A DNA stretch of 64,000 nucleotides from an uncultured Gemmatimonadales bacterium (GTDB lineage Bacteria > Gemmatimonadota > Gemmatimonadetes > Gemmatimonadales > Gemmatimonadaceae): contig OY969695.1 in the NCBI GenBank assembly GCA_963701965.1, positions 2,720,001-2,784,000 on the forward strand. Reading direction: 5' to 3'. The notes beneath the pieces are model-generated. The model saw nothing but the letters and a program-made list of their open reading frames with translations. It was not told where the DNA came from and searched no databases. The stretch's first letter is position 1, and each line of letters begins with the position of its first letter. Shown in pieces: positions 10,614-43,741 of the stretch. The position numbers and the translations under genes were made by a program.

Positions 10614-10953
10614 GGGTCGTGGGCGGCCGGTCGCGCAACCTCGAGTTGCGCGCGAACTGACGGCGTCCCAGCGGAGGGAGCTGTCGTTTCTAGCCACGCT
10701 TCCCGATGAGTCGATCGACCTTTCGGACGCGCCCGACGTTGCCAACTGGACGTCGCCGGTGGTGGGCCGGTTCTATCGCCCGATCAAGGAACCGGTGACG
10801 CTGCGGATCGACGCCGACGTGTTGGCCTGGCTGAAGGCGTCTGGCCCCGGCTATCAGACGCGGATCAACCGATGGCTGCGGACTGCGATGGAGACAGAAG
10901 GCGCGCGCGTGAAGCGTTCTGTCGCGAACAGGAGCGGCCGCGCGCGACGCTAA
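10594..10953 (+). CDS. brnA: BrnA antitoxin
   Basis: DESIDLSDAP, FYRPIKEPVTLRIDADVLAWLK, GYQTRIN. Confidence 0.9.
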   Translation: MKTGSGKGRGRPVAQPRVARELTASQRRELSFLATLPDESIDLSDAPDVANWTSPVVGRFYRPIKEPVTLRIDADVLAWLKASGPGYQTRINRWLRTAMETEGARVKRSVANRSGRARR

Positions 10954-10957
10954 CGCG

Positions 10958-12469
10958 TCAGGTCGACGCCCAGAGATGTTGCGCCGCGTACGCGCGCCAG
11001 GGGCGCCAGGCGTGGGCGCGATCGAGCAGCGCCGCGGGGGTGCGGTCGAGGCCCTCGTGCGTCGCCATGACGCGCATGAGTCCTACGTCGGCGGCCGGGA
11101 ACGCGTCGGGTTCGCGCAGTTGGCGGAGCGCGATGTACTGCGCGGTCCATTCGCCGATGCCGCGGATCGACCGGAGGCGACGGACGGCGTCTTCGAGTCC
11201 CGCGGTCGCGTCAAACAGGTGCGGATCGGCGACGGCGGCCGCGGCGAGCGCCGAGACGGTCGCGGCGCGGCTCCGCGGCATGCCGAGACTCGCGATGTCG
11301 GCACCGATCAGCGCGTCGGGTCGCGGAAAGACGCGGGTGAGCGCGCCGTCCGGCTCGGCCAGCGGCGCGCCATAGGTCGAGACGAGGCGCCCGGTCAGGC
11401 GGCGGGCGGCCGTGAGCGTGATCTGCTGGTGGAGCACGGCGCGGATGGCGAGCTCGAACCCGTCCCATCCGCCGGAGACGCGGAGTCCCGGGCGCGCCTT
11501 GACGAGCGGCGCGAGCGTCCGGTCCTTCGAGAGATGCGCGCCGATCGCGACCGGATCGGCCGCGAGATCGAATACGCGGCGGAGCCGCGCGATGATCGCC
11601 GGCAGCGCAGGAATCCCGGTGACGCTTCGCGTCGCGTGATCCGGGGTCGGTTGGACCGATCCCGGCCAAGCCGGGATCATTGGGAAGCGGACCGTGGCCC
11701 GCAGCGCGTTCTTATCGGCCAGCTCGACGGTGACCGTTCCCTGGGCCCCATCGAGATCGATCGATCGCGTGTAGCGGTCCGCCGTGACGTGCTCGATGCC
11801 GGGGATGGCGCGCCGGCGGAGGTGTTCGATCATCGCCGGCCAGTCGTACGGCGGCTGATAGCGGAGCAGGAGCGCGATCTCCCCGCGCGGTCCGATCGCG
11901 CCGTCGGGTGTGCGGGTGCGCCGGAGCATGCCGGGCGATCGGCCGAAGAGCGTCGCGAACGTCTCATTGAACCGTCGGACGCTCTTGAACCCCGCGGCGA
12001 ACGCCACGACGCCGAGGGGCATCCGCGTCTCGTGGATGAGTTGTTTGGCGAGGAGGACGCGGCGCGTTTGGGCGACGGCGATCGGCGAGGCGCCGAGGTG
12101 TTCGCGGAAGAGGCGCCGGAGTTGGCGTTCGCCGACTCCAAGCCGTTCGGCGAATCCCGCGACGTCCGCTTCGTCGAGCGCGCCGTGCTCGATGAGCGCC
12201 AGGGCGCGGGCGACGGTGCGGGACGTCGTCCGCCACGCGCCCATGTCGGGCGCCGTCTCCGGCCGGCAGCGGAGGCAGGGGCGGTAGCCCGCCTCTTGGG
12301 CCGCGGCGGCCGTTGGGTAGAACACGACATTCTCCGGTCTCGGTGTGCGGGCGGGGCACGTTGGGCGGCAGTAGATGCCGGTCGTCTTGACGGCCGTGAA
12401 GAAGCGGCCGTCGAACCGCGAGTCGCGCAGCGCGAGCGCTCGAAAGCAGGCGTCGTGGTCGAGATCCAT
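10958..12469 (-). CDS. alkA: AdaA-AlkA fusion (Ada Zn/AraC regulator plus 3-methyladenine glycosylase) with 21-aa insertion
   Basis: RDSRFDGRFF, IYCRPTC, PCLRC, AraC HTH, GIGEWTAQY, FPAAD, WRPWRAYA. Confidence 0.93.
   Translation of the reverse strand: MDLDHDACFRALALRDSRFDGRFFTAVKTTGIYCRPTCPARTPRPENVVFYPTAAAAQEAGYRPCLRCRPETAPDMGAWRTTSRTVARALALIEHGALDEADVAGFAERLGVGERQLRRLFREHLGASPIAVAQTRRVLLAKQLIHETRMPLGVVAFAAGFKSVRRFNETFATLFGRSPGMLRRTRTPDGAIGPRGEIALLLRYQPPYDWPAMIEHLRRRAIPGIEHVTADRYTRSIDLDGAQGTVTVELADKNALRATVRFPMIPAWPGSVQPTPDHATRSVTGIPALPAIIARLRRVFDLAADPVAIGAHLSKDRTLAPLVKARPGLRVSGGWDGFELAIRAVLHQQITLTAARRLTGRLVSTYGAPLAEPDGALTRVFPRPDALIGADIASLGMPRSRAATVSALAAAAVADPHLFDATAGLEDAVRRLRSIRGIGEWTAQYIALRQLREPDAFPAADVGLMRVMATHEGLDRTPAALLDRAHAWRPWRAYAAQHLWAST
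11616..11678. repeat. 63-bp palindromic element, copy 1 (in-frame in alkA)
   Basis: 57/63 identical to 12726-12788; multiple hairpins; ATC duplicated at the junctions. Confidence 0.88.
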
Positions 12470-12503
12470 ACGGAATAGTCGCCGGGGTGCTGGCCCAAAA
12501 CTA

Positions 12504-12564
12504 GCGGATTTCGGACACTGACATTCGGCGGCGTTTTCCCTCGGAGTTGGCGTCCGAAAACCGC
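12504..12564. promoter_or_regulatory. Inverted 13-bp sites in the alkA/ogt divergent promoter (putative Ada sites)
   Basis: GCGGATTTCGGAC (12504) and GTCCGAAAACCGC (12552), one mismatch. Confidence 0.5.
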
Positions 12565-12619
12565 CAACTTTGCCGAATTCACCAGGCATGTTTCGGGACC
12601 ATTCTTTTGGGAGTGCATC

Positions 12620-13231
12620 ATGCCGGTTTCCGCATTTCATCTCGAGCGCGTCGGGACCCCGACCGGGCCGTTTCTCATCGTCACCGATGACGAAGGGCGC
12701 CTGCGGGCGGCGGAGTGGGAGGATCTCGGCGACGCTCCGCGTCGCGAGATCCGAGGTCGGTTGGACCGATCCCGGCCGAGCCGGGATCTCGCGCATCGCA
12801 TGCATCGGTCGCTGCGCGTGCCGTACGGGGAGCGGGTCGAGTTGCGGCCGATCGCGGCGCCGTCGGCCGCTGCCCGGGCGCTGGAAGCGTATTTCGAGGG
12901 CGAGCTGGAGGCGGTCGGTGTGCTACCGACCTCGACGAATGGGACGGAGTTTCAGCGCGCGGTGTGGGATGCGTTGCGGCGGATTCCTGTCGGCCAGACG
13001 ATGAGCTATAGCGGCGTCGCGCTCGCGATCGGGCGGCCGACGGCGACGCGCGCCGTCGGACTGGCGAACGGTTCGAATCCCATTCCCATCTTCGTGCCGT
13101 GTCACCGCGTGATCGGCGCCAACGGGTCGCTCACCGGGTTTGGCGGCGGAATCCATCGCAAGCGGTGGCTCTTGGCCCACGAGCGGGCGCTCGTGGACGA
13201 GCAGCACTCGCTGTTGGTTGGCGCGCGGTAA
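12620..13231 (+). CDS. ogt: O6-methylguanine-DNA methyltransferase with 21-aa insertion
   Basis: GTEFQRAVW, RAVGLANGSNP, VPCHRVIG. Confidence 0.95.
   Translation: MPVSAFHLERVGTPTGPFLIVTDDEGRLRAAEWEDLGDAPRREIRGRLDRSRPSRDLAHRMHRSLRVPYGERVELRPIAAPSAAARALEAYFEGELEAVGVLPTSTNGTEFQRAVWDALRRIPVGQTMSYSGVALAIGRPTATRAVGLANGSNPIPIFVPCHRVIGANGSLTGFGGGIHRKRWLLAHERALVDEQHSLLVGAR
12726..12788. repeat. 63-bp palindromic element, copy 2 (in-frame in ogt)
   Basis: Bounded by GGATCTCG at 12721 and 12784, 63 bp apart; no stop codon in any of six frames. Confidence 0.88.
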
Positions 13232-42368: not shown

Positions 42369-42441
<73 letters not shown>

Positions 42442-43704: not shown

Positions 43705-43741
43705 CTGAAAATCCGCGCGTCGGCGGTTCGATTTCGTCGCT
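43705..43741 (+). repeat. Degenerate att copy of the tRNA-Phe 3' half
   Basis: CTGAAAATCCGCGCGTCGGCGGTTCGATTTCGTCGCT versus tRNA 42400-42436, 3 mismatches. Confidence 0.85.

Follow-up and report, generated by a model that had tools for sequence, protein, structure and literature searches.

Among described bacterial repeats, the closest systems to the element treated here are the repetitive extragenic palindromes (REPs) of the GTAG and CGTC classes, with the bacterial interspersed mosaic elements (BIMEs) and REP doublets forming hairpins (REPINs), and the Rickettsia palindromic elements (RPEs). The element, a palindromic unit of 63-75 bp, is represented by two copies within the neighbouring DNA-repair genes ada-alkA and ogt in a window of 64,000 nucleotides, the whole stretch analysed, from contig OY969695.1 of an uncultured Gemmatimonadales bacterium. 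According to the accessible text of the relevant papers, REPs combine a short stem with a conserved unpaired 5' tag, are dispersed and lineage-restricted, lie near gene ends, often at TAG, form tandem arrays and include some in-frame copies, also in repair genes, all of which applies to the element as well, and those of the CGTC class likewise occur without a known transposase (PMC3733652, PMC3333891, PMC3116915). The stem-loop of 20-40 nt at many loci by which REPs are recognized is found here as a second hairpin of 21 nt at ~73 loci. As far as the accessible text describes them, RPEs are also palindromes lying in frame in unrelated conserved genes, to which a peptide is added, and they differ in measuring ~150 bp and in carrying a conserved peptide, which the element lacks (PMC10969869, PMC3733652). 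In-frame insertion into conserved genes whose orthologues are empty is, judging from alignments, a trait shared with RPEs. In-frame palindromes are thus already known from RPEs and intragenic REPs, and the in-frame behaviour is ordinary.

Then, how do REP-like elements choose and enter their sites? This question is still open, above all for those without a REP-associated tyrosine transposase (RAYT). In the family described here, insertion leaves a readable record, consisting of an arm that mirrors conserved host codons, an invariant core adjoining it, and empty alleles in relatives. At many loci the first hairpin includes host DNA and a mirror copy of that DNA, which is not met in the consulted portions of the REP descriptions (PMC3733652, PMC3333891, PMC3116915). 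The tag RTCGGTT with four variable nucleotides also sets the element apart from the GTAG and CGTC tags of REPs, as these are given in the text descriptions (PMC3733652), and, unlike for GTAG-class REPs, no repeat-flanked RAYT was found in six genomes. In contrast to miniature inverted-repeat transposable elements, the two ends are different hairpins and the junction repeats vary in length; as for integron attC sites, GTTRRRY occurs only in some subtypes and the partner box RYYYAAC is absent, and a motif of the integron integrase gave no match, no profile search being made. A further parallel may lie in the small dispersed repeats of Nostocaceae, which are mobile, very small and, in some cases, enter a short palindrome. 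No Rfam family scored above the gathering threshold, and no account of this repeat family or of flank-mirroring repeats was found in the literature searched, which was incomplete for subscription papers. The family is real, REP/RPE-like and restricted to one genus among those searched, and it is apparently undescribed.

Unit structure and the mirrored host flank

The genome of this bacterium is a single 5.12-Mb contig with 67% GC and dnaA at 2.643 Mb. Positions given below are those within the window unless prefixed with G000 (this genome), G001 or G003 (congeners) or G005. Hand curation of G000, with nine chance or inverted matches removed beforehand, yielded ~73 loci, in sets of 65, seven and one, with ~119 units; three loci are degenerate, and 17 loci are tandem arrays holding 63 units. 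A unit reads, in order, host flank, the top of a small GC-NNN-GC hairpin, an arm, 0-3 unpaired bases, the core RTCGGTT, a spacer of 4-5 nt and a 9-bp hairpin, and 5-16 nt of the upstream host flank are often repeated in the arm as their reverse complement. Invariance is confined to TCGGTT, the sole sequence block that all subtypes share, and to the GC..GC top of the second hairpin, and the distance between the two is constant in all subtypes and species. The 4-mers between RTCGGTT and the foot of the second stem include GGAC, GAAC, TGAA, GCCT and others. In the second hairpin (21 nt), each stem position is paired in 47-50 of 50 units by several pair types, i.e., the stem covaries, and the loop is TGC, TTC or TCC in 40 of the 50, which corresponds to GNA on the opposite strand. 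GNA loops are unusually stable in single-stranded DNA.

Two main subtypes could be summarized in G000: subtype A has GATC ends and 63 bp (~24 loci, including the alkA and ogt copies), and subtype B has CTAG ends and 66-69 bp (~15 loci), while ~26 singular loci belong to neither. Subtype C, the main type in the congeners, has 72-75 bp and an additional small hairpin, and subtype E is like subtype C with a different second hairpin. Tandem units differ from REPs in running directly head-to-tail, and only two pairs, at G000 380,339/380,436 and 896,606/896,670, are head-to-head in the manner of REP dimers. The inner hairpin of the CTAG type (e.g., at locus L123) reads CAGGGTGCTGAAAAA, which we take to resemble some insertion sequence (IS) ends; a full IS bearing ends of this type was not found. 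Neither the tandem arrays, nor the constant core with exchangeable hairpins, nor the host-mirroring arm had been mentioned in the original prediction.

At many loci the 5' arm of the first hairpin is host DNA, and the 3' arm abutting the core is its reverse complement. For example, the mirrored stretch is ~16 nt long at the glutamate dehydrogenase locus, where it covers the GIYA codons with the stop codon, and 13 nt long at the DUF72 locus, where it covers the SLF codons with the stop codon; the PccB and MBOAT loci are similar. The same C-termini are present in empty orthologues (4/4 for glutamate dehydrogenase, DUF72 and MBOAT each, 1/1 for PccB), and the mirrored codons are therefore host DNA. 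A predicted host stop codon falls within the 5' arm at 18 loci. Here, the 3' arm agrees with the codons of its own host at 93 of 123 positions, the stop codon itself being left out, while 100,000 swaps among the same loci averaged 48.7 and never exceeded 72. It should be noted that this result is lowered by the glutamate dehydrogenase locus, which is mis-registered by a bulge and scored 1/3. Flank scores, from which locus 3044194 was removed, are 8.33 for own versus 5.86 for swapped flanks in the CTAG-type subtype B (15 loci), and 7.65 versus 5.32 at the singular loci (26 loci). The flank mirror, the feature of chief interest, can be read directly from the loci.

Proposed timing and mechanism of arm writing

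Is the mirror written during insertion or later? Pairwise comparison of 14 CTAG-type copies shows a difference of 71% for the last 6 nt before the core, as between random sequences, and of 11.5% for the core and second hairpin. In tandem arrays, the later units carry the arm of the first unit without rematching to their new neighbour, the mean flank match being 7.5 for 17 first units and 6.2 for 46 later units. The three orthologous copies at rbfA have an arm that stayed as it was when the flank changed. These observations favour writing at insertion. We therefore propose, with a probability of roughly 45%, that the mini-element moves as single-stranded DNA in trans, pairs with its target and rewrites its arm during insertion.

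Under this proposal, the element would likely be transposed as single-stranded DNA by an enzyme encoded elsewhere, and the site would likely be chosen by base-pairing between the internal arm and the immediately upstream host sequence. The folded strand may be the AACCGAY strand, on which the loops are GNA, and a protein would recognize the core and hairpin. After joining, the extended target end may fold back onto the small hairpin, and host polymerase would use a few bases of the flank as template and then switch back to the element. The single-stranded DNA reading is based on the GNA loops with their covarying stem and on the mismatches in the first hairpin, which on the core strand are A.C in 16 cases and G.T in 6. 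Read on the GNA strand, most of these mismatches are wobble pairs (p = 0.052, with six degenerate or non-first loci removed). Tandem arrays would arise afterwards through local duplication, and an arm variant GATCC may have spread to the ~24 GATC-like sites, mostly genic, where only units of 3n bases would survive. At two G003 loci the mirror lies in a new outer hairpin with an older hairpin inside, and the element thus seems to gather hairpins while moving. As a guess by analogy with REP/RAYT and IS200/IS605 systems, the enzyme could be an HUH-type nuclease. In the available descriptions, IS200/IS605 elements such as IS608 combine hairpin recognition with pairing-based site choice, as we infer for the element, which differs in that no Y1 transposase was found, no overall replichore bias was seen, and the pairing arm changes per locus (PMC3201880, PMC5027513).

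Another explanation, which falls short of even odds and still has to be taken seriously, is that a REP-like element with fixed ends inserts at short palindromes (GATC, CTAG, GC^TC), that normal replication later stalls at the hairpin, where intramolecular template switching copies the flank and so lengthens the stem, and that the outcome is retained by selection for strong mRNA hairpins at gene ends. Quasi-palindrome template switching is known, in the accessible part of its description, to extend repeats of 4-5 bp to 11-16 bp and to invert spacers; the same homogenization of arms and inversion of loops is seen in the element, where it would be a regular feature ending at a fixed core and not, as described, a sporadic mutation process (PMC8604942). 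The matched copies lie mostly at stop codons, 15/18 of which were called TAG, where an RNA hairpin could be selected, and REPs are common at 3' ends in the text consulted (PMC3733652). Nevertheless, nearly every CTAG-type copy would have to be rewritten while the rest diverged by 11.5%, the rewriting would always have to end 0-3 nt before the core, and the 46 later array units as a group, as well as the rbfA copies, would have to be spared.

A number of observations weigh against writing at insertion. The flank mirror of the GATC subtype A is weak (6.91 for own versus 6.39 for swapped flanks, with the own flank strictly best in 2/23); this subtype mostly keeps a fixed arm, which favours later rewriting, and since one and the same 10-nt arm stands beside four different flanks, copying cannot accompany each insertion. 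In the orthologous pair L071/L084 both arms differ together, and some copies have inverted loops (GAA, GGA), so rewriting after insertion does occur. That the first array units are still matched while the later ones drift suggests continuing correction or selection. The orthologue comparison behind the host origin of the flank covered 4 of the 18 stop-codon loci. As to the enzyme, the original prediction had the element mobilised in trans, and indeed no mobiliser adjoins it, the 226 neighbour proteins including no transposase or mobility nuclease family; the RAYT/Y1 transposase family PF01797 was matched in 0/6 genomes (67-95% complete), with the control matched in 6/14; and orientation shows no clear overall link with the replichores genome-wide (36/65, p = 0.46), in contrast to IS200/IS605 elements.

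It is also conceivable, and in our judgement quite unlikely, that nothing is copied at all, and that a pool of arm variants exists, each of which finds a complementary site. Guide-based site choice of this kind is described for IS608 in the text available (PMC3201880), and the GATC subtype would fit, with one arm beside several near-matching flanks and wobble-type mismatches. Such mismatches in A-type copies are compatible with site choice by pairing under either timing of the writing. Ahead of every jump, the arm would need a mutation rate about six times that of the rest, and matches of 13-16 nt to conserved codons would be very rare sites.

What would writing at insertion imply? It would amount to a target-templated insertion route, none of which was found in the literature searched, and the core could then serve as bait for the enzyme. 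In its strongest form, which we consider doubtful, the element would be a self-programming mini-transposon of 60-75 bp, in which the reverse complement of the target is written as a heritable guide by an enzyme outside the RAYT, DUF559 and GIY-YIG families that recognizes RTCGGTT and the GNA-capped hairpin; each copy would carry the guide to its own site, and its descendants would inherit the guide and seek similar sites. If, on the other hand, the mirror is written later, this would be an unusually clean case of bacterial template switching, building RNA hairpins over stop codons at dozens of loci. With either timing, the family is predicted to add loops of 21-147 residues to core proteins.

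The copies in ada-alkA and ogt and the insertion sites of the family

The two copies within the window and their host genes have the following features.

10958..12469, minus strand: host gene ada-alkA, 503 aa, with the domains Ada_Zn_binding, HTH_18, AlkA_N and HhH-GPD
11616..11678, plus strand: copy 1, a 63-bp GATC-type unit inside ada-alkA, read in frame on the minus strand
11610..11642, plus strand: first hairpin of copy 1, whose 3' arm is the fixed arm of the family with an imperfect flank match, and whose 5' foot GAATC would be target DNA
11646..11656, plus strand: core of copy 1, GTCGGTTGGAC
11658..11678, plus strand: second hairpin of copy 1, stem 9 bp, loop CAA
12620..13231, plus strand: host gene ogt, O6-methylguanine methyltransferase, 203 aa, with the PCHR active-site motif intact
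12726..12788, plus strand: copy 2, a 63-bp GATC-type unit inside ogt (residues ~35-55), read in frame on the plus strand
12721..12752, plus strand: first hairpin of copy 2, whose outer stem GGATCTCG/CGAGATCC pairs with the target-side junction repeat
12756..12766, plus strand: core of copy 2, GTCGGTTGGAC
12768..12788, plus strand: second hairpin of copy 2, stem 9 bp, loop CGA
12784..12791, plus strand: right copy of the 8-bp junction repeat GGATCTCG of copy 2, with the left copy at 12721-12728

The original prediction had placed both copies at these coordinates in the same orientation, with 57/63 identity, and this is confirmed, the hosts being Ada-AlkA (minus strand) and Ogt (plus strand). 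The 21 extra residues that it assigned to each protein are borne out by homologues, in which the insert columns are empty in 119/119 cases for Ogt and 119/119 for AlkA; most AlkA homologues have 482 aa compared to 503 aa here. The junction repeats, GGATCTCG in ogt and ATC in alkA, were recovered as described, and so were the stop codons in six frames, with none in copy 2 and two in copy 1, both on the plus strand. The folding z-scores of the copies are -3.7 to -5.0. On the other hand, the proposed middle hairpin GGTCGGT/ACCGATC is not family-wide, because it requires C after GGAC, where most copies have T or A, and the suggested compensatory pair is contradicted by two further copies, in pyk and at G000 2,676,713, where the other partners are combined. 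In an AlphaFold model, the Ogt insert lies, with low confidence, between a strand and a helix that both belong to the N-terminal domain (residues 39-44 below 50), and the catalytic domain is well predicted.

DNA-repair genes, in which the original prediction had found both copies, are not special, since pyruvate kinase, obg, cardiolipin synthase, MeaB and an ABC ATPase also carry units. No copy is closer to the one in alkA than that in ogt, and the loop is atypical in both; therefore, the pair, probably of the GATCC-arm kind, is probably due to a local hop rather than to targeting of repair genes. Of the best homologues of AlkA and Ogt, few are named, and these come from other phyla, e.g., Stellaceae and Micropepsaceae; the alkA-ogt region (10958-13231) has only weak partial DNA matches in the congeners. 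Consequently, the gene pair was probably acquired horizontally, with insertion of the element afterwards, as far as such sequence comparisons indicate. A gene with a BrnA antitoxin domain (10759-10953) converges on alkA.

The suggestion of a dispersed mobile element is supported by empty alleles at 5/5 congener insertions aligned to relatives, with flanks 86-96% identical and indels of 75, 72, 75, 72 and 68 nt; the pyk site is empty in 5/5 congeners. Targeting of GATC, as initially proposed, holds for ~24 of the 73 loci, and the others lie at TAG stop codons or, in congeners, at NNGC^TC. For type C, the sites are NNGC^TC in 3/4 and GGGC^CC in 1/4, with no duplication. The CTAG type has a junction repeat of 3-5 bp, and in the GATC type the right GATC is nearly invariant and the left one imperfect, a pattern that would agree with insertion 3' of a short target with no duplication, as in IS200/IS605 elements. 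Across the family, the junction repeats range from none to at least 8 bp.

Similarly, the claimed neutrality to reading frame stands insofar as the units are often in frame, and yet it looks like a filter and not a design, because units in genes measure 63, 69, 72 or 75 bp (63 or 69 bp in G000), while units of 62, 65 and 68 bp lie between genes. There are ~21 in-frame loci in G000, 17 from gene calls and four read by eye, and the homologue check of in-frame inserts covered alkA, ogt and pyk. The AACCGAY strand is the sense strand in 15/17 coding loci, or 18/21 with the four eye-read loci. Coding units use five of the six reading frames, and hence the peptide is not the conserved feature.

Some individual sites are also worth describing. 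Locus L019 (G000 2,607,086-2,607,529) has seven tandem units, 441 bp in an open frame, by which an ABC ATPase is lengthened by 147 residues close to its start, and locus L014 (G000 2,274,911-2,275,165) is an array of four units at imuA-imuB-like genes. The CTAG-type insert L080 of G003 is 68 nt net and off frame. The empty G001 allele of this site (L171) has TAG, which matches the left junction of the G003 element, where G005 (L172) and G000 have TAC; the TAG could be the footprint of an excision or stem from a nonsense change that arose earlier. One intergenic gap contains three subtypes in three lineages, L108 (G000), L146 (G001) and L096 (metagenome), which suggests that one site was used repeatedly. 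In G001, a different hairpin repeat (L224) lies 3' of the MBOAT stop where G000 has a CTAG-type element.

Distribution of the family and the search for a mobiliser

The two copies belong to a much larger set, since an nhmmer model matched 76 units in the genome, compared to none when the genome was reversed. A 32-nt pattern is present in 4/5 congeners and in 0/245 genomes from other genera of the family, and a loose pattern has 57 matches in G000 and 0-4 in each of 400 other genomes of the phylum, the same as the control (this tally includes genome G308, with one background match). By BLAST, dozens of related copies were found in G001 and G003. Based on these searches, the repeat family appears to be confined to one Gemmatimonadaceae genus among those searched, which included 76 others. 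Viral contigs had no exact match to the element, and a match in Planctomycetota (L074) has no hairpin and was discarded as chance. The copies are known here from assemblies, and an assembly artefact is nonetheless very improbable, given that the frame is kept in ~21 genes and that five other assemblies and ten metagenome contigs hold related copies, in part at orthologous sites.

The 226 neighbours are mostly core genes, and a minority has no Pfam match, none of these recurring at unrelated loci (395 clustered). For the IS91-like Y2 transposases, PF04986 was matched in 0/1 and PF14319 in 0/6 genomes, both controls being mute. No stand-alone DUF559 gene was found in six genomes, apart from one weak match within a 1644-aa frame. 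Matches to GIY-YIG comprise UvrC, four unclassified ones in G001 and a UvrC-like gene that every genome has. None of them is bracketed by the element, though in G000 and G003 a single element is located close to the UvrC-like gene. A linked IS110 transposase, considered in the original prediction, did not emerge, as the IS110 loci, like those of reverse transcriptases (RT), are without the element, and the core is absent from the ends of multi-copy IS in the genome.

Could the element then spread without a dedicated enzyme, by template switching at the replication fork or by RNA and a host reverse transcriptase, with the help of microhomology? We regard this as distinctly improbable, although the mobiliser searches were empty, the junction repeats vary, and two RT genes are present. 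The bias of the AACCGAY strand toward the sense strand of coding loci would also agree with it, as would local hopping and an excess near dnaA. The former is indicated by the GATC-type loci (n = 23), whose sequence distance grows with genomic distance (Mantel rho 0.30, p = 0.010), and the latter by 35/65 loci near dnaA compared to 21.6 expected. The fixed TCGGTT and its distance to the hairpin top in all subtypes and species would be left unexplained, and so would the restriction to one genus. Near dnaA the orientation is 25/35 (p = 0.017), in a region picked after viewing the data, and the polarity failed genome-wide.

Several further features were seen in the genome. A relaxase-like gene split into two frames next to an integrase fragment (G000 4,313,731-4,316,927) is probably a decayed integrative element; no core-plus-hairpin site lies near this gene, at about 4.314 Mb, which was rejected as a candidate mobiliser. 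Four identical tandem units of 45 bp, which bear a hairpin and lack the core, are located at G000 4,085,199-4,085,378. Besides dnaA at 2.643 Mb and two further matches near 0.594 Mb, there is a strong DnaA-family match at 2398-2874 of the window (E 4.7e-53). In addition, a direct repeat of 37 nt (92% identical) at 42400-42436 and 43705-43741, presumably resembling the 3' half of a tRNA, is possibly an attachment-site duplication.

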